NCBI RefSeq assembly: GCF_016433145.1
Contig: NC_058131.1
Coordinates: forward strand, 462,178,899-462,242,898
From: Gracilinanus agilis
Lineage: Eukaryota
Direction of reading: 5' to 3'
Length of the DNA stretch: 64,000 bases
Shown here: positions 5,201-56,790 of the stretch, piece by piece
Numbering within the stretch: position 1 is the first letter of the stretch
How the letters are laid out: each line of letters opens with the position of its first letter
The notes under the pieces: model-generated
Databases searched by the model: none
Seen by the model: the letters and a program-made list of their open reading frames with translations, nothing else
Told to the model about the DNA's origin: nothing
Program-made: the position numbers and the translations under genes

Positions 5201-7094
5201 AAACACTTTTGCAATCTAATATTTTGAGGCTGTTTCTCCGTGAAACTTGCCAAACTTCTGAAACTCAACTTCATTTAATAAACATTTGTTAAACACCTTT
5301 ATTATTACATTTTTAAACATTATAACAATAAATAAGTAATAAACTTTACTCAACACCTACTCTCTGCCAGGCACCAGGAGAAAAAGACAAAAATGAATTT
5401 CCTCAAGCAGGATACAATCTATCAGAACTAGAGAACTGAGATTAGCTTCTGAACTCTTTGCTTACATATTCTTTCAACTCAGTAGTAGGAATATGTAAGA
5501 TTTCAAGAATTTTCTAATTGGATAGGACAAAGGTAAGGGTCACCATTAATCCCATTTCCCAGCTGGGAAAATTGAGGCCCAGAGACAGGCAATGACTTAC
5601 ACTAGACAGTTAGATGGCACACTTGATAGAATACTGGACCTGAAGTCAGGAAGACCTGAGTTCAAATCCAACCTCAGACTCTTACTATATATGGCCCTAG
5701 GCAAATCACTTAATGGCTTTGCCTCAGTTTCCTCAACTATAGAAAGAAGATAATAATAGTACTTACCTCTCAGGGTTGTTGTGAGGATCAAACAGATATT
5801 ATAAATTGCTTAATATAATGCCTGGTGGTACATAGTAGGTACTATTTACATGCTTATTTCTGTCCTTCCCCTTCCCACTAAGACTGTTGCAACATGCATG
5901 AATGCAGAACCTTAAGCCTTCTTCCTATGAGTTCCAGGCTGACTCTAAGTATGTACTTATACATCCTGTTAAATCTTATTCACAGGAGCAGCAACATGGC
6001 TCAATAGAGTCAGGTCTGGAGTGGGAAGATCCCAGGTTTAGATCTGGCTTCAGACACTTCCTAGTTGTGTGACTCTGGGCAAGTCACTTAATCCCCATTG
6101 CCTAGCCCTTACCACTCTTCTGCTTTGGAACCAAAACTTAGTATAAATTCTAAGATGAAAGGTAAGAGTTTTTTTTTTTTAATCTTATTCATGACCTACC
6201 AAGTCCTCTGTAGATAGGGACAATCAAGATTTTCCCCCCTTTTCTGTAAGGAAGTGAATTGTATGACAATAGAAAAGGATTCTGGGAAGTTGCTTCTGGG
6301 GGTTCCCACAATATGGCAGACTGGATCATGTTTACGTTACCACCACTTCTCTCTTCATTATACATTGGGAGGCAGCACAGTCTAATGGAAAGAACATTGA
6401 GCTTAAAGTCTTGGATGTGACAGGTTGGATTAGATAATCTCTAAGATCCTTTCTAGTTCTATGTTTATGATCATATGAATCTAGGCACTAACATTTACTG
6501 GCTTCATGACCTTTGGAAAAATCACTTCACCTCCTTGAACCTCATCAATCTACAAAATGGAGATGATCATAATTGTTCCATTTACCTAATAGGCTTTTTG
6601 TGAGAATAACAAAAATAATATTTAATGGCTTAAAGTGCTATATAAATGTTAATTACAAACCTGAAATTATATTGCTTTGAAGACTCAGTAGGGTTTAGGC
6701 AGGAGGAAACAACATGCAAGTTTTCTAGTTTGAACTACAGAATGATTCTCCTTCTCTGGTTTGTCTTTCATTCTTGGAACGTCTTTTGGGTAGCCCTCCT
6801 ATCCTAAAAACACAAATTGATTCCCCTTTTCTGATCATCACTCCACTATATGTTATGTCTCTCCTATTAGAATATAAGCTTCTTTTGGGCAGAAACTATC
6901 TTCACTTTTATATTTGTTTCCTTAATGTTTAGTTAGCATATACAATGTAAGTGCTTAATAAGCACCTTTCCAGTGCGACAGCTAAATGGGAAGTCCTAGA
7001 TTCAAACCTGGGCTCAACTTCTTCCCAGCTGTGTGATCCTGGGTAAGTCACTTAATCCAATTGCCTAGCCCTTACTACTCTTCTGCCTTGAAAC

Positions 7095-7247
7095 TGTAAT
7101 GGGAAATTGTAGGATAGATATAAGGTATAAGATGAATATAAGACTTAAGAGAATAGATGACAGCTTGAAGGAATTCAATTCAATTCTATTCTCTTAAGTC
7201 TTATATTCATCTTATACCTTATATCTATCCTACAATTCCCCATTACA
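7095..7247. mobile_element. 153-bp foldback element with 63-bp terminal inverted repeats, inserted in a SINE
   Basis: Arms 7095-7157 and 7185-7247 are reverse complements with one mismatch, around a 27-nt spacer. Termini are TGT...ACA with a 4-bp TSD AAAC (7091-7094, 7248-7251). It splits a SINE1-type element (about 6975-7290). Confidence 0.85.
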
Positions 7248-7397
7248 AAACTAATATTTAGTATTGATTCTTAGAAGGTAAGGGTTAAAATTTTTTTTCA
7301 ATGCTTTTTCATTCATTTATTCTTCTACCTTGGGAATATGAGCACATGGCATTCCCTTAAAGGGGATCCACTGCCACTCAATATGATCAGTATAGAG

Positions 7398-8660
7398 CAG
7401 TGATGGTGAACCTTTTACAGACCAAGTGCCATGCCCCACTTTTAGAGACCAAGTGCCCCTCACCCTCACCCCAGACAGGAGAGGGAAGAAGCACTCCCAT
7501 TGGGCTGCTGGGCAGAGGGGTGGGTGATATGAAAATATGTCCTCAGGTGGGGAGGTAGGAGGATAGGGGGAGGGAAACAGCTCAGCCCAAGTCCCTTTGA
7601 TTTTCTAGTAACAAACTTGTATGTGTGCTGTAGTATAGAGAGAGGAGTCATATAGTTTTTTCAAGCTTTGGCTGAGTTCCAAAAGCTGTTAGGAATTTGG
7701 AATCTTGAGGAAAAGACAGTTGATTAGGGTCTCCCGTGGAGGGAGGTTGTCTGATCAGCCGAGCTGCCTCCTTACCTAGCTGTAGTATTGAAATTTAGCC
7801 TAGCTTTGATATATTTATTTAAGAAATTATTATTTTGGATAAACCCTTTATATCTTCCTTCCCTAATATTATTTCCTACCTACCCTCCCTTACCTTATAT
7901 GTCTGTGGAGTTAATAAGGAGAGTAATTAGAGAGGAGTTAAAATCTGTGATGGGTTAATTGTTATTTGACAATATTAGATATAGAGAAACTAGTCAGTCA
8001 TCATTTATTTTGTAAGCTGAGTTAAAGTCTGGTCCTTACTCAGACTCCATCTTTGCCACCCTTCCCCCACCTGAGGTTCCTGAGACAACTGTTAGGGCTT
8101 TCCTTTGATCCACTTTCCTGACAAATCATCCTTTAAAGATAATAAACCCTTTTGTGTTTCAACAGACCTATTAGTATAATTTGTCTGTTAGTTATTAAGA
8201 GAGGGAAGAAGAGGGAAAGAACCAACATACTCTGGGCTTGAAGGAAGCCGGGGTATCCATCTTGAAGGAAGGTGTAACTTCAAAACAAGCCCCTTCCTGT
8301 GAAATTAAATAAACCCTGTTTGTTAATTTCAGTTTAGTCTATTTCCCTCAGCCTGTGTTTCAGTCTAAGTCCCAGTCTGTAAAGCCTGCTGTTTGTCTGT
8401 TTAGTTTAATTTCTCCTCTCCCTGAAGATCTCTGTTTCCCTTCTGTGTTATACTCCTGACTTCAGCCCTATTATATCCTGAATCTCCTTAATCCCAGCCT
8501 ACCTGTAACCTAGATTACCCATTTAGCAAGTCTCTGACAACCTCCTTTCAAATTCCCTTATCCCACACACCTTTCCTTACAAATTACCTCCATTACAGTG
8601 CCCACAAAGAGGACTCTATGTGCCCTCTCTGGCATGTATGCCATAGGTTTGCCACCATGG
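7398..8660. mobile_element. hAT-type non-autonomous DNA transposon (MITE), interrupted by a solo LTR
   Basis: Terminal inverted repeats (TIRs) CAGTGATGGTGAACCT / AGGTTTGCCACCATGG and a perfect 8-bp TSD GTATAGAG (7390-7397, 8661-8668). Confidence 0.85.
7629..8597. mobile_element. Solo LTR (ERV1-like, about 970 bp)
   Basis: TGTAG...TTACA termini, a 4-bp TSD GTGC (7625-7628, 8598-8601) and internal AATAAA motifs. It is nested inside the hAT MITE. Confidence 0.8.
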
Positions 8661-10799
8661 GTATAGAGTCATCAAATATCAAAATTGACAAAACTGTGCT
8701 CAACAAATGGTTAACAATTATTTCTTGTATTTAGATTTTTAGTGATTAATAGTTTGAGGCAGACAGAGCATTTAGGCCTTTAGTGATTGTCTACATTAAT
8801 AGAGTCCCCAAATGGCATTTCTTACTGGATCATCAAGTTTGTTCATTTAACTTAGTCAGTAATCATTCTACCCTTTCAGCCCTTTTTCAAAGACTGGATT
8901 CATAGCAGGAGTTGCTAGGTTTGGGGATATGGCCTATTCCACCAATATTGAGGCAATTCTGGATTAGTCTCTTGCTAAGTATGGCTGCACCAATAATGTC
9001 CAGCCTGGCCCATGGCCAGTGGAAACTTCTTTCCTAGGAAACATGTCCCAGTGAGAATCAAAGGTTGGAATGAGCCTCAAAGACCAAGTCTTACCTCCAC
9101 CTGAGAAAGAAACTCCTCTAAAGTTATATGCCTCAGGGGCAGCTAGGCAGCTCAGTAGATAGAGAACCAGGCCTAGAGATGGGAGGTCTTGGGTATAAAT
9201 CTGGTCTCTCATACTTCCTAGCTGTGTGATTTAGGGTAAGTCATTGCCTTGCCCTTTCCACTCTTCTACCATGGAATCAATACATAGTATTGATTCTAAG
9301 ACAGAAGGTAAGGTTTAAGAATAAATAAATCAATAAAGTAATGTGCCTGACAAGTTTCATCTAGTTTTTGTTGAAGACCTTCAGTAAAAGGAATCCCCAC
9401 TATATTCCAAAGCAGCCCTCACCACTCTTGGACAGCTTTCATTGTGGGAAAGTTTTTCACATTAAATTAATATGTTCTTTGCAACTTTTCACCTGTTACT
9501 CCTACTTCCACCCTTAGCTGCTTTTCTTTTATTGTTTTTTCCCCTTTCTGAGGACCCATAGTGCTTAGCATAGTATCTGGCTCAAACTATAAGCTTATTG
9601 GTTGACTTGACTTGAAAAATGGACTTGGACACCTTTACAGGGTCTTTAGAATTCTTCAACCTGTGAAGTTCTGGAAACCTAATATGTGTTTTCTTAGTCT
9701 CCTTGCCCTACCTCCAATGGGCTGGTGCCCTGGACAGTGGGCCTCTAGCTTCAGATTTGTGTGAGTAAATGTGAACCAGCTGAACCTGGATGAGAATTGA
9801 GTTTAAGGCAAATTGTATTGTTCCTCATGGAGGAATCCCATTGCTGAGTCTTTGGATTAGTCCTCTGCTCTTTCTTTGTATTGCTTTGATTATATTTGAT
9901 CCCCAAAGGGAGCTCCATGGGGTGCTGGTTGAGCCTTGAGAAAGAGAGCGAAGTTTGCTCAGTAATTGGTAAAGACAAGCATGGTGGGAGCAGCTGGGTG
10001 GCTCAGTGGATTGAGAGTCAGGCCTAGAGATGGGAGGTCTTGGGTTCAATTTCTGGCCTCAGATACTTCCTAGCTTTGTGACCCTCAGCAAATCACTTAA
10101 CCCTCATTGCCTATCCATTACTGCTCTTTTGCTTTGGAACCAATATGCAGTATTGATTCTAAGATGGAAGGTAAGGGTTTAAAAAGAAAAAAATAACAGA
10201 CATGTCAAGAATCTATTTGAATGTACTTCTGCCCTTCTTCCATCCAGCCTTCAGATATTTTTGACCCTTTAGCCAAATGAACTTACTCAGCTCTGTCCCC
10301 TTGCTGAACAACAGATCGTCTTCTCCCACCCACTTTAGTGATTTTTTTTAACATGCTTTTGAGAGCTATTTCCATTCTCCTCTTGGGAGGAAGGAAGGGA
10401 GCAAGCATTGACATAGTGTCTGCTATATGACAGCACTATGCTAAGTGCTTTTTTATAAATATTATTTTGTTAGATCCTCACAACAACCCTGAAAGGTAGG
10501 TGCTATTATTATCCCTATTTTACAGATGGAAAAACTGAGGCAGAGGATGTGACTTCCTCAGGGTCACACAGCTAGTGTCAGGCTGGATTAGAATTCAGAT
10601 CTTCCTCACTCCAGGTTGAGTACTTTATCCACTGCCCTCTATCCACTACCTACAGGTAGCAGATTTACTTTCTGTGACCTTAGCAGGATGCTGTCCATTA
10701 TCACTGCTACTTTCTTGTCCATAATCTCTGCCCTCTTAATTTCAAGTTCTATAGGCATGGTAGTCAGAGGACTTTCTTTTGAGGCAGACTATGCTAGGA

Positions 10800-11696: not shown

Positions 11697-11835
11697 NNNN
11701 NNNNNNNNNNNNNNNNNNNNNNNNNNNNNNNNNNNNNNNNNNNNNNNNNNNNNNNNNNNNNNNNNNNNNNNNNNNNNNNNNNNNNNNNNNNNNNNNNNNN
11801 NNNNNNNNNNNNNNNNNNNNNNNNNNNNNNNNNNN
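11697..11835. other. Assembly gap (139 N)
   Basis: Run of N characters. ORF-track entries spanning it are artefacts. Confidence 1.
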
Positions 11836-12471: not shown

Positions 12472-12798
12472 CAATGACGGCAAACCTATGGCATGGGTGC
12501 AAAAGATGGCATGCAGAGCACTCTCTGTGGGGGCACAGCCACCACCCATCCCCCCTGGTTTCATTACTAGAAAGGCAGAGGGTTTGGGGCAAAAGTGCTT
12601 CCTTCTACCTCTCCACTGTGCCTGCTGACATTTTTTCACGCCACCAGCCCCTCTGCCCAGCAGCCCAATGGGAGCTCTTTCTCCCTCCCCTCTGTGGGGT
12701 AAGGGGCAGGCAAGGCACACCTGACACTCATTTGGGGAAGGAAACAGTGTGCCATCTGGGGGGAGGTGGGCACCTCTCTAAAAGGTTTGCCATAACTG
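12472..12798. mobile_element. Second copy of the same hAT MITE family, in opposite orientation
   Basis: TIRs CAATGACGGCAAACCT / AGGTTTGCCATAACTG and a degenerate 8-bp TSD TTCAAGAT/TGCCAGAT (6/8). The internal cccctctgcccagcagcccaatgggag is the reverse complement of a segment of the 7398 copy. Confidence 0.8.
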
Positions 12799-19633: not shown

Positions 19634-21624
19634 CTGTAAAATCAATAGAGTAGAAATCAGAGGTAAAATTAATTTTTATCTTTTTACAGAGCGAACATTG
19701 AAGGCTGGCACTTTTGGGGTAATGAAAGAAGCTAGAATCATTAACACAGAGCAAGGTCCAATACTGAGGTTGGGGTAGAAGAAAAATGAATCAAATACAT
19801 GAGGTTTAAGTCTGGGTGGATATATTGGGAAGAGGGTTCTCAGTTGGGAGAAAGAGTAACTGGGTATGGTGGCAACGAGGTGGCTCAGTGGATTGAGAGG
19901 TAGGCCTCAGAGACAGGAGATCCTGGGTTCAAATCTGGCCTCATATACTTCCTAGCCATGTGACCCTGGGCAAATCACTTAACCCACATTGCCTAGCCCT
20001 TATAGTTCTTTTGCCATGGAACTAATATACACTATTGATTCTAAGACAGAAGGTAAGGCTTTAATTTAAAAAAAACAAACAATAATTGAGTGTGAGAGTA
20101 AAAACAAAGGGAAGTGGTTTCCTAAGGAGCAAGCCCTAAATGGGGAGAGACAAAGGTTGGGTAGAGTCAAGTCAACAGCAAGTCAATAAGCATTTATTAA
20201 CTGCCTACTGTGCACCAGGTACCATGCCAACTGCCATCTCTACAAATTGGATGCCATATCCACTTTCTTTTTTTCTTTTATTAATTTTAAACCCTTACCT
20301 TCTGTCTTGGAGTCAATACTGTGTATTAGCTCCAAGGCAGAAGAGTAGTAAAGGCTAGGCAATGGGGGTTAAGTGACTTGCCCAGGGTCACACAGCTGGG
20401 AAGTGTCTAAGGCCAGATTTGAACCCAGGACCTCCCATCTCTAGGTCTGGCTCTCAATCCACTGAGCTACCCAGCTGCCCTCTCCACTTTCTTACCATGA
20501 ATTGTTCCCATGATATATTGGTGTTCTTGTTTGGATATCTACTTTTCAGGGTATGAAGGTAAACAGGTACACGGATAATCTGTCTAATACCAAGTCTGTC
20601 CCTCTAGCTGATGAAAATCACAGGGCAGTTAGGTGGTACAGTGGAGAAGGGAGGGGGATTAGAGTTAGGAAGACTCATTTTTCTGAGTTCAAATCCAGTC
20701 TTAGACTTAGTAGTTGTGTAGCCCTGGACAAGTGATTTAACCCTGTTTGCCTTGGTTTCCTCATCTATAAAATAAGTTGGAAAAAGAAATGGCAAACCAT
20801 TCCAATATCTTTGCCAAGAAAACCTCAAACGGGGTCAAGAAGAGTTGAATACAAGTGAACAACAACATGGGACACAACCCAAATAAAATGTGAAATGGAG
20901 CCCAAAGACTGGCTATGTTTCTGATTGTTTATACTAGTAAACATCACAACATGCTGAGTGTTGTGATCAATTTTCCTGGAGGCATTTGGGAATGGAAAGT
21001 ACAGTTCTACTCTGCAGTAGAGTCACCTTTGAAGAAGCTCAAAGTATTTCTTGGACTCCTGTCAAATTTACTCCCCATTCCTACTGATGACATATTAGTC
21101 TTCATTGCCTCCCCTTGCTGTAAATCTCTCTACACGTGAGCAAATGTTTCTGTTATGGACTGGTTTCAGCATTATTTGGGGCTTGCCTGTGTCATACACC
21201 TTAGACACATGTACAGTTCTTAAAGGGCCTGATAATCTTTTGTTTTTTCTTGCCCAGATGCCCAGGAAAAAAACAAGACAAATACAGTTGGTTTGGTTGC
21301 TATTTCTAGGGATTAAAACTCAAGGCTGGGTTCTTCCCAAATGTATATATAGGCTTCACACATGAATACAGTAAGACAGATTTTTGATGTTTTAAAGCTG
21401 TTAATTGAGGCAACTATGAAAAACTCCCTTATGTTACTTCTGCCTCTTCCTGCTTCCCAAGCAGCCTTCTGTTTCATATAACCTTCAGTCTCCTGACCAG
21501 AGTAAGAAAAGGAGTCCTCTAGTCATGCTCCTTATCCCATTATAAATTTTTAGTCTTTCCTGGAGCTTTCTCAAAGCTTATGGCACATCCTCTAACTTGT
21601 TCCTTCTTTCCTCTCTCCCGTCAG

Positions 21625-21685
21625 GAGTTGACTTTAAGATGAAGACTATAGAAGTAGATGGCATCAAAGTTCGGATACAGATTTG
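21625..21685 (+). CDS. RAB15: RAB15 coding exon 2 (61 nt)
   Basis: Pyrimidine tract plus CAG acceptor ending at 21624 and GTGAG donor at 21686. Encodes (G)VDFKMKTIEVDGIKVRIQI(W), the switch I/interswitch region of RAB15. Confidence 0.97.
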
Positions 21686-27319: not shown

Positions 27320-29889
27320 GTAAGTAGGGGGAAGCTTGAGGTATAGAGGACCTGGAGTCAGGAAGGTATGGGTTTAAATCCTAGCTTCAGTCAGGAACTA
27401 GCTGTGTGATCCAGGGCAAAACTTGCCTCAGTTTCCTCACCTGTGTAATAGGGATAATAATAACACTTCTTTGGGATGTTTTGAGGTTTAAATGAGAAAG
27501 TATTTGTAAAATGCTTTGCAAACCTTAAACAAAGTGCTATATTGGTGTTAGCTATTATTATTATTATTGTAATCCCCTTCCCACTCCATATCCCTTGCAA
27601 CACCATGGGTGTAAATAAGCTAATCGAGGGGCTCTGATGAAGAATGAAGCTCTATTTTTGAAACACCACTTCACTGAGAATTTTGTCATCATCACTAGTC
27701 AACAAGTATGTTAAATATCTACCATGTTATGTAAAGGATGGCAGCATGGAATCCCTGCAAAATACAGGGTCAGCCTCACCCAGAATTCCAGTGCCATCCT
27801 TTACATAACACCATGAACTAGACCCGGTAGTAGTTTTTAGAGCCACAAATAAAAAAAAATGAAACCATCTTTGCCTAGAAAGAGCTTATATTCTTTTTGA
27901 AAATTCCATTTTTTTCATCTTTGATTTTTTTCTCTTTTCATCTCCCCACTAAAAAAGCAAGAAAAATAAAACCTTTTATAAACATGTATAGTTAAGCAAA
28001 TAATCACATGTCCCCCCAAAATATGCCTTACTCTGTACTTCGAATCCACCTCTCTATCTAGAAATGGGTGAGGTTCTGGTCTAATAGGGAAGACAACACC
28101 CTATAAGGAAGTGGTAGCTAAGGAAGGGAGTTGTGGTCTAGGTAATTACAAGAATTTGAATAGAGTCATAGGATAAGAGAAAGGAAGGAAGCAGGGTGAG
28201 GTGCAAAGGTGTATCAGGAGTGGAGGGGCAGTTCAGCTGAATAGGATGTGAAGCATGGTATAGGATGTCACAATATAGTAGATAAGTAAATTCCCAGTAA
28301 TTCCACTATCCAGAACAGGTTAATCCCAGGGCATAGTCCTAAAAATGAGTAGAATAATTAGGGGAAGGGGCATTTGAGATGAGAGTAGATGTGGTCTCTG
28401 GTGGGTTAGATTTTCTAATGGGACAAAGAGCAGACTGGGTGGCAAAATGTCCATGTTTGCCAAGTCCTAGTAGCCTGGTAAATGGCTGCATGGGATGTTG
28501 AGTAAGATTTGAAATCATGTCAGTTCCACCTTTCCCACCTTCTCCTCCTTATACCACAATTACTCTAGCCTAAGGCCTCATCACTAATTTTGTCTGGAGC
28601 CTCCTAATCAGTCTTCCTGCCTCATCTAACTCCCTGTCCAGTCCATCTTCCACATAGCTACCAGATTGGTGCTCCTAAAGCATAGGTCTGGTCATGTCAC
28701 TCCATTGCTCAGCAAGTTCCATTGGCTCCCCAGTGCCTCTAATATAAAATATAAATTCCTCTATTTGATGTTTAAAGCCTTTCACAATCGAATTTAAGCC
28801 TATCTTTCCAATCTAATTTCTCTCTCTCTTTTTAAAACCCTTACATTCTGTCTTAGAATTGATACTAAGTATTGATTCCAAGGTAGAAGAGAGGTAAGGG
28901 CTAAGCAACAGGGGTTAAATGGTTTGTCTAGGTTCACACAGTTAGAAAAAGGCCAGGTTTGAACCTGTCTTCAGGCCTGGTTCTCTGTCCACTGAGCCAC
29001 CTAGCTGCCTCTTTCTAATCTAATTTCTCATTACTTCCCTTTCCTAAGAAAGTAGAAGAAATGGATAATTCTAATGTAAGTATGCTCCTCCTTGCAGACA
29101 GGGACCATTTTTGATTCTCTCTTTGTGCTTGTTGAACTGAACTGAATTGAACTTCCCTCTCTTCACTCAAAGCACATAATGCTGCAGTCAAACTCACCTA
29201 ATGTTCTTTTTTAAATTAAGAACAAAATGTTTTAATTACATGTAGAAACATTTTTAGCCATCATTATCTGACATTTTGTGACCCCCTTCCCCCAATTTAT
29301 CCTTCTTTCTTTCTCTCCGTTCAGCCTTTCCCTGTTCATAAATATCACCTGTTGGTCTTCATACATGATGTCCATCCCCCTCCATACTTTTGTATGCTGT
29401 CTGTATCCCTGAAAATACTCTGCCTTCTTACTTATTGGAACCTCTAGCTTCATTCAGTGTAGGGCAGGAACTGAGGGCAGGAAATTTTTCAGTAAAAACA
29501 ATGCCTCTGGCTAGGGCAACCTAGTTGGAGGAGCTTGGTGGAACTCTCTGATAATCAGGAAACTAAGACCCCCTGCCCTCCCTTCTCCAACTTTCTATCA
29601 TTATCCTCCTCCTCAAGCCAGAGAAGGGGCAGAGATAGGATAAAGAGTAAAAACTTATCCCCTGGAAATGAAGTTAGAAATTATCATGGGAAAACTGGGG
29701 GTTGGGAGGCCAGGGATAGAGTTAAGGAGTTGTCTAGGGGACAAAGGGAGAATATCCTCAGGAAGTTGAAAAGATGTGTAATTCCAAGGAAGGGCTGATT
29801 TATCCACCAGCTTTTAGTGATGCTCAGGGGCAACTTTCCATCCTTCCTCTCTTGCCAACCCCCTCTCAGGGGTTTTCTTCTCCTTGCAG

Positions 29890-42420: not shown

Positions 42421-45400
42421 CTTTTCTTCTCATTTTAGCTACTTGAGTTTTGGGAAAGCAAGTATTCCAATTTGTTTGGAAAGATAGGAATAGTGTTATA
42501 TAAGGGTAGAAAAGTGAATTAGAACCATAATATGGACAGCCTCAAATGTCAGATGTCATTTGGATTTCATTTGGTAAACAATGGAGATTTTCTGAAGATA
42601 TTTGAGCAATGGAGTTATATGATCAGTTATGCATAAAATATTAAAGTATAGCTATTCTATGATTATTTCCCATTATATTCATGGTTATTTGGGGGTAAAG
42701 GTTGGAGAATGGGAAGCTGGAGTTTCCCAACCATTTATCTTCCTTTATAGAATAAGGGCAATCCCAAGGAATGTACTATGAGAAGAGCAGGGTAGGTCTT
42801 CTAAAAGGGGACCTGCTTGCTAATAGCTGCACAGTCTTCTTAGATTAAGAGGACAGGGATGGAAAGCCCTTTGGTGAATGATAGCCAGAGTATTAGTAAT
42901 TACAACTTCTAGGGTTAGAATACATGGTGTACAAATTCATTTTGAAGCAAGAGATTCTGATTCTATAAATTGAGTTTACTGCTCCTTGATCAGAGATAAA
43001 CCACAGTCTTGGTCTTGATGATTATTCCTTTCTCTTAGATCCTGATCTTAATATTTCCAATCCATTTTATTTCAGTCATAACTAAGATTTTTTAAACTGA
43101 GGCAAAAACTGTTGGGAGATCAGGGTGTGGTGTTTTCATAGATGGCTGATCACAGGTATAGTCAGGCCAAGAGAGGGCATGGCCCATCTCCCAGATGCTT
43201 TCTTTCTCAAGGTAGACTTTAGGAAAAGGGCCCTATGAGGAGATTCTGGGAGTGGCAGCTTGGATATGGTTGACCTATACCAGCAGAGTACTGCAAGGAA
43301 AAGTGTAAGAGGGGTGATCATTGTGGTATGGAATTATGCCCCATCCCCAATGTTGATTCCCAGAGGCAAATCTGTGATTACCACTCCCACTCCCCACCCT
43401 CACATGCACATTATGTAATTATAATTAGTAATTATGGCTTTTTTTTTTGCTTTAAACCATCAAAGTTTGAACAGAGACTTAGAATTCCTTCATTTTCATT
43501 TACTCAAACACTTCTTCCCCATGGATAAAATGGGGTGCAACCAATTCATTCCATTTTGTGATATGATGGTTTCTTATATTAGCTACATTCCTTCATTCCA
43601 GTGTACTGAACCCAAGTGAGCAAAAGTCAAGAACTACAAGCTACTAATATACTCTTTGAAAGACTGTAATCTACATAGTCATTATATGACAAATTGGTCA
43701 TTTTGCTTTTGGATGGCTCAGTTATAGATTTTTTTTTGTTCCTTTTTCTTTCTACTTTTCTCATTCTTCTGACCTTCACTATATTTATTTCTCTCTCTGC
43801 TCCTGCCTGGCTTTACAAAACATTCCCATATCAAAAACAAGGTGCTTAATTCTGTTTTCCTGACTATTAATCCATTTGAATATTTAAAATGTGTGTGTGT
43901 GTGCGCACACCTGCACGCGCAAAAGGGTGGGAATCAATTGAATCAATAAATTATCCCTTCATTTTAGAATTAGTATGCTATGACCTTGTGCCTTTGTCTG
44001 GTAAGGAAAAACAAATCATTAATTCATTCAAAGGAATGAACAAGGTATAGACATCAACCAATCAATCATAGACTTTAGTCTATGTGCAGAAAAATCTTTG
44101 ACCAGTTTAGATGTCCTTGAAAGCTAGGAGATAAATTGAAATGATGTTACACAGGAATCGTGTTCAGATTGGTTGAGGAAATTTGGTCACATCTTGTTGG
44201 TTTTGTATAAATAGCAGAACACTTTGGAAACTAGGAATTTGAGCAACTAGCAGCTTGGTGGTAGAAGACCCTAGCTATGTTCCTGAGAAGGAATTTTTTG
44301 AAGTGGAGGGAAAGATAGGAAGGAGAACAGAAGAGTCCTGATCTTGGACCCTGACTCTTCCCCTGCCCCTTCCCAGGAGAGAATAACTCATGAATTTCAG
44401 TTGGCTGGAAAATTTGAACTTTTTTCATTGGCTTCCTAGTCCTCATGGTATCCCCAGAACAGCTGGTACAATTTCTATATTAAGAGAGGAAAATATACAC
44501 AACACACTGAGGAAAGGCAGTTTCAAGACTCTACAAGAAGCTCAGCAGAAATCTACCACCATATCTAAGGAAAATGTGTTGAGGACTCCTACAAAAGGAC
44601 CTCCAGAAGCTTTGAGTTGTAACATTTGCCACACGTGCTCCATGCCCTACTCCATTTTCCTTAGATTCTATATAGACATGGGGGGGGGGGTTTGTACCAA
44701 TTATACTTCCATAATAAATATCCCATTCTCAAAGCTAATTATGTCTAGGTGATTGATATCACTGATAATCATGGAAAACATACTAGTCAAGACTTATGAC
44801 TTATAGCATTAGAAAACTACTTTGAAACCTCCCCGGCTATGCCTAGATCTTGAAGGGAAATGTAGCAGTTGAGCCAGGTTTCCGGGTTGGGATAGTAGTT
44901 CCAGGGTCACCCCCTTTCTGTGTATGTATGTATGTATATATGTGTGTACACTTGTGTGTATATATAATCAATGCTATATGCATTGTATTCTTTGAATGAT
45001 GATAACTGTAATGATGATGGCAGTGTTCCCTACCTGGAGTCCCCTTGTGAAGATGAGAGAACAAGTGACAATGTGGGTCCTGAAGACTGGCTTCCCCAAT
45101 TCATTAGAAGTTCCCAATAAAGAGAAACAGATTGGTGCAAAAAGAAGGAAGTTGTGGGACCATTGGACCATTATACAGTATCCCAGCATTCCTCCAGTTC
45201 CTTTTCTTTGACTTTGTGTCTGCTGCTGCTTTGGGGGTAAGGACTCCAAAGAGATGCTGCCTACTTTTTTGCTGCTTTGCTTTTACAATGAGAACCTACA
45301 GAAAGGTCATGTGGGTGATGGCCATGGATTGCTGTCACTGTGAAGCCACGGAGAAGCTGAGGTCAGACTGGGGATTCACAGCAGCCAGTCAAGGACCAGA

Positions 45401-52185: not shown

Positions 52186-52258
52186 GGCTCTTCACAGGAT
52201 GATGGTATCTTCTTAAACCCTTGAGGGGGAATGAGATGCTTGAGAGTCGTGAAGAGCC
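52186..52258 (+). promoter_or_regulatory. GPX2: SECIS element in the GPX2 3' UTR
   Basis: Helix I is GGCTCTTCAC/GTGAAGAGCC (10 perfect pairs). The core is ATGA(T) at 52199-52203 opposite TGAG at 52241-52244. Helix II is GGTATCT/AGATGCT. There is an unpaired AAA at 52215-52217 and a CCC-ttga-GGG mini-stem, giving a type-II-like fold. Confidence 0.95.
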
Positions 52259-53849: not shown

Positions 53850-55853
53850 GTGTCAGGGGTAGAAGAAAGATCACTATGCCAATCTGTAAACCCCCAATTC
53901 AGACAATCCTTCAGACAAACCTGTAAAACCCCAATTCAGACAATCCTGCTTGAGTATAAGTTGATTATCCTTCTTTTGCCTCACACCCTCCCCCCCAAAC
54001 AGCTTTCTGACGACTGGCATGACTCCAGTTTCGAGCTCTCAGCTAATAAAAATGACCTCTATGTACACCCACAACCCTAACCCGCAGCAACAAATCTCCA
54101 AGCTAAGTGTCTAGAACAGCCACAGCTAGAATGGTGTGCTCTATGCCAGTTTAAAGTAGCTATTAGTTGCTTGAACAGGAAAAGGCCACTTAGAAGGCAA
54201 TGTCTGCTACTGAAACCTCAAAACCCCCTTAACTACCTAGTGTTATAAAGAAGGTATCTTTAGCCACTATTCTAGTTATTATAGGGTATCAGGGAAGCTG
54301 TGCTTTGGATTCCCTTGATAGCTGATGCAGGGACACCCGAGTCCTGTCACTCAGCTGGATGTTATAATAACTACCCCTTCTTGATAACAGCACCCAGACA
54401 GGATCCCTAAAGGTCAGTGGATGGGTAACCCTTTCAGGTCCCACCTAGGGTTGGATCGATTTTTAATATTGGGCTCTATTAGCCTTGGATAACGTTTTCA
54501 TCTGACTGCGTTGCTCCCTCCCCAAGGGTTGTGATGTAATAACCACTTCGGGAAGATATTTAATAAACTTTATCTATAGATGTTAATAAGGGAAAGGAAT
54601 AATCAGGAATGGATTGGGGATAGGAGACCCTGTCACTAATGGCTATGATCACTAATCCCACAGGACTGTAGGCTGTTTCAGTAATGCTGGAGCTCTTGTT
54701 CTTCACCTCCAAAACAAAAACCAGAGAAAGCAATCTGCTTGGTTGATACAGATATCGATGATCCCTCTCAGCTTCTTATTGCCAGTTGTTATGTCAGTCC
54801 TACAGCTGTCAGGAAATATCTCCCTTACCTCCCTCTGCTTCGGCCCGGATACCTGAATATCTAATGATGGTTCAGATGTCTAAATATCTAGGGGGAATTC
54901 AGAGAGAACCAGAGGACCCATGGTCAGATCCACAGGTCAATGCTCCAAGATCAGATCAATGTCCAAGGCCAAGGGTTCCGGGCCAAGGGGTCCAAAACCA
55001 AAGGGTCCTTGTCAGATGGCTGTCCTCTTGTCCTCATGGCATCCGGGAACATTCTGATGTCTCCAACTGTCTTCACCTGTCAATCAAGGTGAGACTCACA
55101 ACTCCCAGAGTTTGAATATGACACTAGCCAGAGTAAGACCAGCAGTAAAAACCCAAAGATTCTTTCCCATATCAATTACCTACTAACTCTCCAAGAGTCT
55201 CTCCTTCCCCCACCCTCAACTAGTATGAATTAGTGCCAGTTCCCAGGTCCAGGTCCACTCTTTGGTCTTGCCAGATAAAAACCTTCTAAAAACCCAAGAG
55301 ACTTCACTCCTTGGGAGAAAGGTACTCCATTCCCCTTAGGAGATCAGGAAGATGCATAGCCTTATCCAGGACCCTAGCAGATGTGGCCTGTTTCCATCAT
55401 TCCCCTTGACTGTTCTTCATTTTGTGAGTATCAGTAAAACTAGTTTACTTTGCAGTCTTGTTGGGAGCTCCAGGTTTCCTTGTATGAGGCTTTGGTCTGT
55501 ATTAAGGCAAGCTCTCCATACAGTGGCAGTATAGACAGTGATTAGATTATGAAAACAGTATGTCTTCTGGGGAATACCAAGGAGAGTTTGGAATTCAATA
55601 GAATTGTCAATGGAGTCTCCCAACATTCTAGTTCAGAATTCTCAGGAACAAACATCTTCCTTTAATCTTTCCCTAAGGTTTGGAGCTGATAGAATAGCTT
55701 TCCACCCCCAGTAGCACCTGAGGCTCAAATCCAAAGAACTAAGGTGCTTTGAAATCTTGTGCACATTGTTTGGGCCCATGGACACACCATGAGATGCTGC
55801 CCTTCCTCAATCTCTGTAACAATAAAGAGAACCAATAACCGATGTTTGATTGA

Positions 55854-55901
<48 letters not shown>

Positions 55902-56790
55902 TATGGTGAGTCTCTCTTCCAGATCTCCCCTGGGGCTGAATATACACTGGGAGAATTTAAGAGGGTGTCACCCTGAAACTGGGTGACCTGGATGATCATG
56001 CTGCCCCACAGGAGTTGGGGGCGGGTTTCCCTATAAGATGAGGTATGTGGTATTCTAATCCAATTCTGAATAAGGATGGGGTTCACACAAACCCCTGCAA
56101 TCAGTTAAATTCACTGCAGGTGGTCTGGCTTCAAGAGAGGCACCCAGACCAAGCTGTGGTTCCCCTCTCCCTTGTTGTATCTCAGGTACTCTGGAACACT
56201 ATCTAACTGATGAATGGCTTTTATTATTTGCAAATCAGGGAATGAGGAAAGGGGTAAAGGGCTTAGGGAATTTGGGATGCCCTCTTGGCTATTGCTATGG
56301 GGTCTGTCACTCGGGTGGGAACCCCAGTGGTTCCCACACCTAAGCTCCTCTCCTCGCTCCTTCTTCTTCTGTTTCTCTATTTCTGTCCTTTCCTATAATT
56401 GTAAGGTTTGACTGAAAAAGGGTCTCTCTGCAAGGTTGGGAATAGGTGAAGGAGACTAAGAGAATTGCTCCCAAAATGGAATCCAAACTTAGCTGACTCG
56501 ATAGTTGAAGTCTTAATGGGGGAGATGTGATGGAAGGGCTTTGATCAGGGAATCAGGGTTTCAATTTCCAAAAGAAGATCCTTAGGAAGCCCTCAGGTTT
56601 GGATCCAAGCTGGGATGTCCTCCTCCTCTCTCCTCCCAGTCCTTCCGCCAGAAGACTTCTCCTCTCCTCTCTTCCTCTGGAAAATCTCCCAGAATTCTCC
56701 TTGTCTCAACTGTCAACAACTGTCAGCAACTCCTTCTCTGGCTCCTTTTGTCCCATCCCCCTAGCACAAATCCCATCCTTACATCTCTAA
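53850..56790. mobile_element. Mosaic of ERV/LTR-derived sequence downstream of GPX2
   Basis: Several TG-initiated LTR-like blocks (about 53850, 54530, 56526), a 27-bp internal duplication (53884-53910/53921-53947), AATAAA at 54045-54050 and a PPT-like aatgggggaga before TGTGA at 56526. No intact gag/pol ORF. Confidence 0.45.
55857..55892. repeat. (GA)n microsatellite
   Basis: Directly visible. Confidence 0.95.

Follow-up and report, generated by a model that had tools for sequence, protein, structure and literature searches.

A 153 bp fold-back insertion in a SINE of Gracilinanus agilis, most likely built from two U3 ends of one retroviral LTR family

The window considered here, the whole 64-kb stretch of Gracilinanus agilis DNA that was analysed, carries at positions 7095–7247 a fold-back element which is most likely composed of two U3 ends of one retroviral LTR family, and which probably derives neither from the neighbouring solo LTR nor from a Ginger transposon. 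An origin of the element as such from LTR ends can be held with considerable confidence; that it arose as a self-primed fold-back of viral plus-strand DNA, inserted by integrase, has about an even chance of being correct. In its workings the element resembles an ERV integration product, in its appearance a Ginger-type MITE.

Structure of the Fold-Back Element

The element and its host sequence are made up of the following parts:

6986..7094, + strand: 5' part of the host SINE, 77–86% identical to nine of nine other window copies compared
7091..7094, + strand: left target duplication AAAC, the last two or three letters of which are matched 5' of TGT by several contigs of the parent family (pieces starting at 7091, 7092, 7092, and 7093)
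7095..7157, + strand: left arm, 63 nt from the start of a longer, low-copy repeat and likely the U3 end of an ERV LTR, according to the arm alignment with contigs of run X1
7158..7184, + strand: spacer, in which the same repeat continues (most contigs to 7174, one to 7187), with a small stem-loop at 7165–7178 and a 5-nt repeat run
7185..7187, + strand: TCT, at once the last matched letters of the longer-repeat variant and the complement of AGA 7155–7157, and likely the fold-back microhomology
7185..7247, − strand: right arm, an inverted copy of the first 63 nt with one difference (7238 against 7104) and the terminus ...ACA
7248..7251, + strand: right target duplication AAAC
7252..7298, + strand: 3' part of the host SINE with its A/T-rich tail

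The arms at 7095–7157 and 7185–7247 are complementary at 62 of 63 positions, the sole mismatch being A7104 against C7238, and enclose a spacer of 27 nt (7158–7184) within an element of 153 bp that has AAAC on each flank (7091–7094 and 7248–7251) and both of whose termini end precisely at TG/CA. The sequence-only reading, which had described two 63 bp arms with one mismatch, a 27-nt spacer, and AAAC on both sides, was accurate in each of these points. Coding capacity is absent from the element, and a BLAST search of the 64-kb window with arm and spacer returned no further copy. The RNA fold of the element amounts to −100.7 kcal/mol (z −18.6), a stability equalled by none of 200 shuffles, and its DNA fold to −62.7; an inverted repeat of at least 19 bp within 400 bp appeared in none of 30 block-shuffled windows, and the chance of a 4-mer repeat at a fixed register is 0.0045. 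As far as the assembly shows, the element is real.

Host SINE and Gene Context

The host SINE, which we take to resemble the opossum SINE1 family, becomes gapless at the junction in comparison with four of four other window copies aligned once 157 bp (the element plus one AAAC) are removed, and AAAC is therefore a true target duplication; the target hexamer at the insertion reads GAAACT. From the 77–86% identity between the host SINE and nine other copies it follows that the insertion is much younger than the SINE, which bears out the earlier view of their relative age. The insertion had also been described as clean and placed in the SINE tail; it is indeed clean, as the gapless alignment demonstrates, but its site lies ≈40 nt before the A/T-rich tail. 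The SINE, earlier described as lineage-specific, is not specific to one species, as the family is abundant in contigs of all three organisms compared.

RAB15 exons occur in the window from 21642 onwards, and GPX2 with a SECIS element at 49.3–52.3 kb. We infer that the element is placed in RAB15 intron 1, as had been presumed: it lies 14.4 kb upstream of RAB15 exon 2 at 21642, and exon 1 was not found in the window. In the GPX2-like gene (49.3–52.3 kb), an in-frame stop occupies the selenocysteine position, and a SECIS_1 match extends over 52191–52253. A separate candidate for double-stranded RNA upstream of RAB15 exon 2 is found at 19871–20479, where two facing SINE copies with 174-nt arms (83%) are separated by 186 nt.

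The Parent Repeat Family

Relatives of the arm were sought in the contigs of public sequencing runs, and contigs of run X1 were aligned on 7080–7265 at 80% likeness. Run X1 contains a fraction of 0.59 of the words of 6880–7411 and is possibly the source sample, in which case it is not independent. A total of 41 X1 contigs match 7080–7265, 12 of them at 99% or above and 14 at 95–99%, and their summed depth reaches 1100–2200 on 7094–7149 and 620–700 on 7150–7170, with single-locus contigs at 22–31. These values suggest some tens of young loci of the arm family in X1, a rough figure and not a copy number, as overlaps inflate the depth sums.

Among the matches listed, namely the best 9 of 42 pieces and 8 of 17 loose ends, seven X1 contigs diverge into unlike sequence behind 7174, and other flanks are present in three before 7095 and in two before 7097; no second inner continuation at 7157 is found among them. 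At least two X1 contigs, with loose ends before 7092, carry a purine-rich tract directly before TGT. A purine tract in this position is the mark of the U3 end of an LTR, as in the 3' LTR after the polypurine tract. Given the other flanks, the unlike continuation, and the purine tract, the left arm and most of the spacer thus make up the 5' (U3) terminus of a longer repeat that is likely an ERV LTR. The LTR-end origin and the integrase-type footprint put forward in the sequence-only reading are accordingly supported, namely by a longer, multi-copy repeat and by the purine tract before TGT in two contigs. The grounds for a putative assignment to ERV1 are the purine tract, the termini, and the 4-bp duplication; the other LTR end, a primer-binding site, and a pol gene were not seen.

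One X1 contig with a depth of ≈30 comprises the whole spacer up to 7187, with no difference listed, and then continues in unlike sequence for at least 255 letters; therefore, the entire spacer is parent-type sequence, and the overlap at the joint amounts to 3 nt (TCT). The last 10–13 bases of the spacer are covered by one X1 contig only. This contig, whose depth is that of a single locus and whose spacer is identical, may represent a sister copy, or it may be this locus with an ordinary LTR.

The same alignments bear on the proposal that the element belongs to a self-propagating MITE family with 63 bp terminal inverted repeats, mobilized by a transposase of Ginger type or by an integrase that acts on copies in the chromosome. 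Ginger1 and Ginger2/Tdd are defined, in the sections of the Ginger paper drawn on here (PMC2836005), by TGTNR ends, inverted repeats 40–270 bp in length, and 4-bp duplications, all of which the element displays, and hairpins other than this one could be hidden, since the window's own hairpin joints are likewise unrecovered in the contigs. Against such a family, the relatives of the arm are not of uniform short length but continue in longer, unlike sequence, with a purine tract on their upstream side. The X1 depth across 7157 passes from 699 to 628, so it is not halved at the inner end of the arm, and the end of the spacer occurs in a single contig as described above. A change of strand is seen in none of the 41 X1 contigs, a weak blank in view of those unrecovered joints, and the low-cover run X3 follows the arm only to ≈7174. 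Furthermore, the target AAAC (hexamer GAAACT) fits neither the CCGG/CCGT preference of Ginger1 nor the RTATAY of Ginger2 described in that paper (PMC2836005), which speaks against the Ginger-type option raised earlier; the arm of the element, unlike Ginger termini, belongs to a one-sided longer repeat, and the window contains one copy. The sections cited name only the domesticated Gin-1 gene for mammals (PMC2836005). A MITE family, also envisaged in the sequence-only reading, finds no support so far and is regarded as improbable.

The outer flanks of the parent copies deserve attention as well. At least four of at least nine X1 contigs with outer flanks match on into 7091–7094 by 2–4 nt, in a listing that favours long pieces, where the chance of matching is 0.047 for AC and 0.014 for AAC. 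Judged from these alignments, proviral copies likely have before TGT the very letters with which the duplicated target ends.

In runs from other organisms, the arm was met in no contig of X2 and X8 and in one weak 37-nt piece of X21, blanks of a kind that can be false; that in X2 and X8 fits a young, lineage-limited arm family. An exact 26-mer of the arm had no match in viral contigs and none in metagenome contigs.

The Neighbouring Solo LTR

7629..8597, − strand: solo LTR, TGT...ACA, 969 bp, with the 4-bp duplication GTGC, of a different high-copy family

This solo LTR exemplifies the 4-bp duplications that LTRs leave in this window. A likeness between the start of the arm and one terminus of the solo LTR had been pointed out in the sequence-only reading, and when anchored at the terminus it holds, as only 1–2 of about 3990 random places score equally. 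Past the first 20 nt, the likeness falls to background (194 of 474 random stretches are equal), and the solo-LTR family is about a hundredfold deeper in X1 than the arm family. The solo LTR was for these two reasons rejected as the parent of the arm; it is at most a cousin.

Within the solo-LTR family (7629–7900), depth is very high in the runs X1 and X3 of organism A and close to nil in X2 (organism B) and X8 (organism C), in contrast to the SINE and hAT families, whose depth is high in every one of these runs; this depth contrast points to a lineage-limited ERV burst. The solo LTR interrupts a hAT-like non-autonomous element at 7398–8660 with the 8-bp duplication GTATAGAG (7390–7397 and 8661–8668), of which a 70% similar copy is located at 12479–12798. 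A stretch at 55815–56783 has the same length as the solo LTR (969 bp), TGTA...TACA ends, and a 4-bp direct repeat; it is one of 12 hits of a loose scan and possibly due to chance.

Coverage of the Junctions

Contigs of X1 match the flanks of the element without difference at 6400–7050 and 7261–7430 (0 of 651, 0 of 170, and 0 of 97 flank bases differ). They stop at 7050 and resume at 7261, and none of those listed spans either junction or the joint between spacer and right arm; in the alignment of 41 contigs, 7192–7265 has no cover, although contig holes prove nothing. Contig building readily drops short single-copy links that connect high-copy repeats, and hairpins are difficult to sequence. 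X1 contigs that skip 7094–7254 and 7090–7250 read as other SINE copies (among the best 15 of 451 joints). The reads, then, neither confirm nor refute the fold-back, nor the existence of further fold-backs. Depth dips to 9.2 at 7080–7086, and the right-flank contig has 21.8 in comparison with 28.9 and 30.9, which could reflect the loss of hairpins.

It might be argued that the locus is an ordinary LTR or a longer palindrome, and that the fold-back was produced by the assembler or by a chimeric read. The scaffold is indeed gapped, with 139 N at 11697–11835, the joints of the element are not seen in the X1 contigs, and the single-locus contig with the same spacer continues otherwise. A chimeric fold-back, on the other hand, would run into the inverted left flank and would not come back to the right flank with an exact duplication of 4 bp. 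In addition, the two arms differ by one base, missing contigs carry no proof in either direction, and the window contains a second, independent fold-back whose ends are of the same type (see below). Such an artefact is considered highly improbable.

Proposed Origin of the Element

The preferred reading of the element as a self-primed U3 fold-back would involve the following steps. Plus-strand synthesis would start at the purine tract, copy ≈93 nt of U3, and stall. In the released strand, the spacer stem-loop would bring the 3' end near, TCT would pair with AGA, and polymerase would copy the first 60 nt back, to yield a hairpin whose closed end would form a blunt U3 att site. Integrase would then trim to CA and join the hairpin to the SINE. 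This last reaction may have taken one of two courses. The hairpin may have been converted to double-stranded DNA beforehand, its two U3 ends then being inserted at a distance of 4 bp; alternatively, a single end may have been joined, while the 5' letters left untrimmed paired with the AC/AAC of the target, which would give the same AAAC duplication with no second end required. The match between the letters before TGT in sister copies and the duplicated target favours a single hairpin. A point against the fold-back route is that two ends 153 bp apart make a tight loop for one intasome.

The stem-loop at 7165–7178 has pair probabilities of 0.6–0.75 as single-stranded DNA. The priming pair TCT/AGA is weak (probability 0.02–0.04), the best fold of 7093–7187 using another register at −3.2 kcal/mol, and some 3-nt upstream complement exists at 25 of the 54 possible 3' ends, so that the TCT/AGA overlap is not special. 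With a weak priming pair and so common an overlap, self-priming is a step that we infer rather than see. TG/CA is described as an integrase recognition motif in the material cited from PMC3601003, and gammaretroviral integrase leaves a 4-bp duplication, which the cited part of the XMRV study gives for 13 of 15 sites (PMC2857682). Self-priming of strong-stop DNA by reverse transcriptase has been described in vitro for HIV-1 minus-strand DNA; the same source, as far as it is cited here, concerns minus-strand DNA, calls this self-priming a dead end, and reports it as undetected in endogenous reactions, all of which counts against the fold-back route (PMC6088434).

Two further histories start from the same viral sequence. 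In the first, a solo LTR came first and made the AAAC duplication; a later template switch during replication then replaced everything past position 93 with the inverted first 60 nt, by way of the short terminal inverted repeat of the LTR, and the duplication was kept. A single template switch suffices to produce a perfect hairpin, and such switches are frequent in mammals, as stated in the cited part of 10.1101/2023.04.19.537475, the terminal inverted repeats of LTRs are given as ≈7 bp in that of PMC3601003, and the single-locus contig with the exact spacer followed by unlike sequence could be the unswitched allele. The switch, in turn, must skip all that remains of the LTR and resume precisely at the final base of the LTR; it leaves the AC/AAC match of the target to the letters 5' of TGT in sister copies unexplained, and with X1 flanks identical throughout (0 of 651, 0 of 170, 0 of 97), a different allele at full depth would be a little surprising. 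This course of events is judged unlikely.

In the second, the U3 ends of two viral DNAs were joined 4 bp apart by integrase, the chromosome was broken, and the tails were trimmed and joined at TCT/AGA, or a longer palindrome was later shortened centrally. Concerted products from two molecules are common with purified integrases, and such an event yields exact ends, a 4-bp duplication, and a lopsided centre, with arms that may differ at one base from the start. It needs two viral DNAs in one germ-line complex and survival of a double-strand break; trimming of both tails to less than 100 nt is not expected, and the G variant at 7104 is not seen among the close X1 copies listed. An origin from two molecules is rather improbable.

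A Second Fold-Back and a Possible Recurring Class

27725..27810, strand unassigned: second fold-back, TGT...ACA, 86 bp, with perfect arms of 19 bp (26–28 with one gap) and an inner stem-loop, z −7.9

This fold-back is situated ≈20 kb away from the first among RAB15 exons, is unrelated to it in sequence, and is flanked by the 3-bp direct repeat CCA, or by the 4-bp repeat ACCA if its last A is counted as missing. Six inverted repeats that start from an exact seed of 12 bp and have arms of at least 14 occur in the window, comprising three SINE pairs, one at chance level, 7095–7247, and 27725–27810; in an anchored scan, in which TGT starts occur in 6 of 361 candidates, only the latter two beat the best score of 15 shuffled windows. 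The fold-back at 27725–27810 is a candidate for a second member of the class; it could also be a catalogued MITE or a product of template switching. Two other structures were rejected as members: 54241–54389, a 149-bp imperfect palindrome with TGTTAT ends and no duplication, has a z of −3.5, and neither it nor 44563–44666 rises above the shuffles. The former has 14-bp arms with 13 of 14 terminal matches and a further inner match of 11 nt, and is possibly an old relative, possibly chance.

The occurrence of a second fold-back within 64 kb makes a recurring class plausible. It is tentatively proposed, as a conjecture with rather less than an even chance of holding, that ERVs here repeatedly shed short self-primed U3 hairpins that are inserted by integrase, and that these would form a gene-less, MITE-looking class from several unrelated LTR families, perhaps with thousands of members genome-wide.

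Comparison with Known Systems

With ERV1-like solo LTRs and gammaretrovirus-like integration products, as characterized in the cited parts of PMC2857682 and PMC3601003, the element shares the TG...CA ends, the 4-bp duplication, and the purine tract before sister copies. In contrast to an ERV1 solo LTR, it has two facing U3 ends and ≈93 nt of LTR, and R, U5, and a polyadenylation signal are absent; since its second end is an inverted copy of the first, it is LTR-derived and not a solo LTR. The self-primed strong-stop DNA of HIV-1 cTAR provides a parallel for the proposed mechanism, in that reverse transcriptase extends a short viral DNA, folded back at a stem-loop, into a hairpin; whereas those products, in the cited sections, are minus-strand and formed in vitro, the element would be plus-strand U3 DNA with an att site, fixed in the germ line (PMC6088434).

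The mammalian hairpin MITEs Made1 and MER53, the source of miR-548 and miR-1302, are likewise short palindromic insertions that give an RNA hairpin. They are represented in the portion of PMC3742188 drawn on here as many two-armed derivatives of DNA transposons, whereas the element has LTR-type ends, and no second full copy was seen in the window or in X1 contigs. Template-switch hairpins, too, arise in a single step as a perfect inverted copy of the neighbouring sequence (cited part of 10.1101/2023.04.19.537475), but template-switch mutations alone, unlike the element, bring no foreign sequence, no att ends, and no target duplication. In the largely open-access literature searched, no germ-line U3–U3 fold-back insertions and no marsupial LTR-derived MITEs were found; the parent family or the class may be catalogued in Dfam or Repbase.

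RNA Potential

If RAB15 transcription crosses the element, its RNA on the RAB15 strand is predicted to form a 63 bp duplex with one A–C mismatch. Canonical miRNA hairpins are marked by an apical UGU/GUG and a flanking CNNC. The 63 bp stem, with UGU/GUG absent from the loop and CNNC absent from 7248–7275, makes the RNA a poor fit to the Drosha substrate suggested in the sequence-only reading, and in length the stem greatly exceeds the 35 bp that miRNA precursors favour according to the cited part of 10.1101/2023.04.19.537475; an Rfam match at the element was not found. No RNA-derived run appeared among those listed for 6880–7411, a blank that bears on expression in neither direction. The RNA is predicted to suit ADAR or Dicer better, with editing or siRNA production as the likelier fate, and siRNAs from the element would be complementary to the U3 RNA of the parent family.

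Significance

As a single locus, the element is most likely a neutral passenger and probably harmless. Its interest lies in what it points to, a way for a retroviral integrase to fix a reverse-transcription by-product in a germ line, and in the route that it suggests from an LTR end to an element with terminal inverted repeats. Repeat annotation would break up or misname elements of this sort, and short-read data would under-represent them. Should they recur, they would offer a countable in vivo test of integrase fidelity (U3 versus U5 ends, lengths of the duplications). They would also put to the test the link proposed for LTRs and Ginger-type repeats, and the question whether hairpins of this origin silence the parent virus. 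If the class is true, it would constitute a living case of LTR ends becoming terminal inverted repeats, and each transcribed fold-back would supply a finished double-stranded RNA trigger directed at the family it came from.
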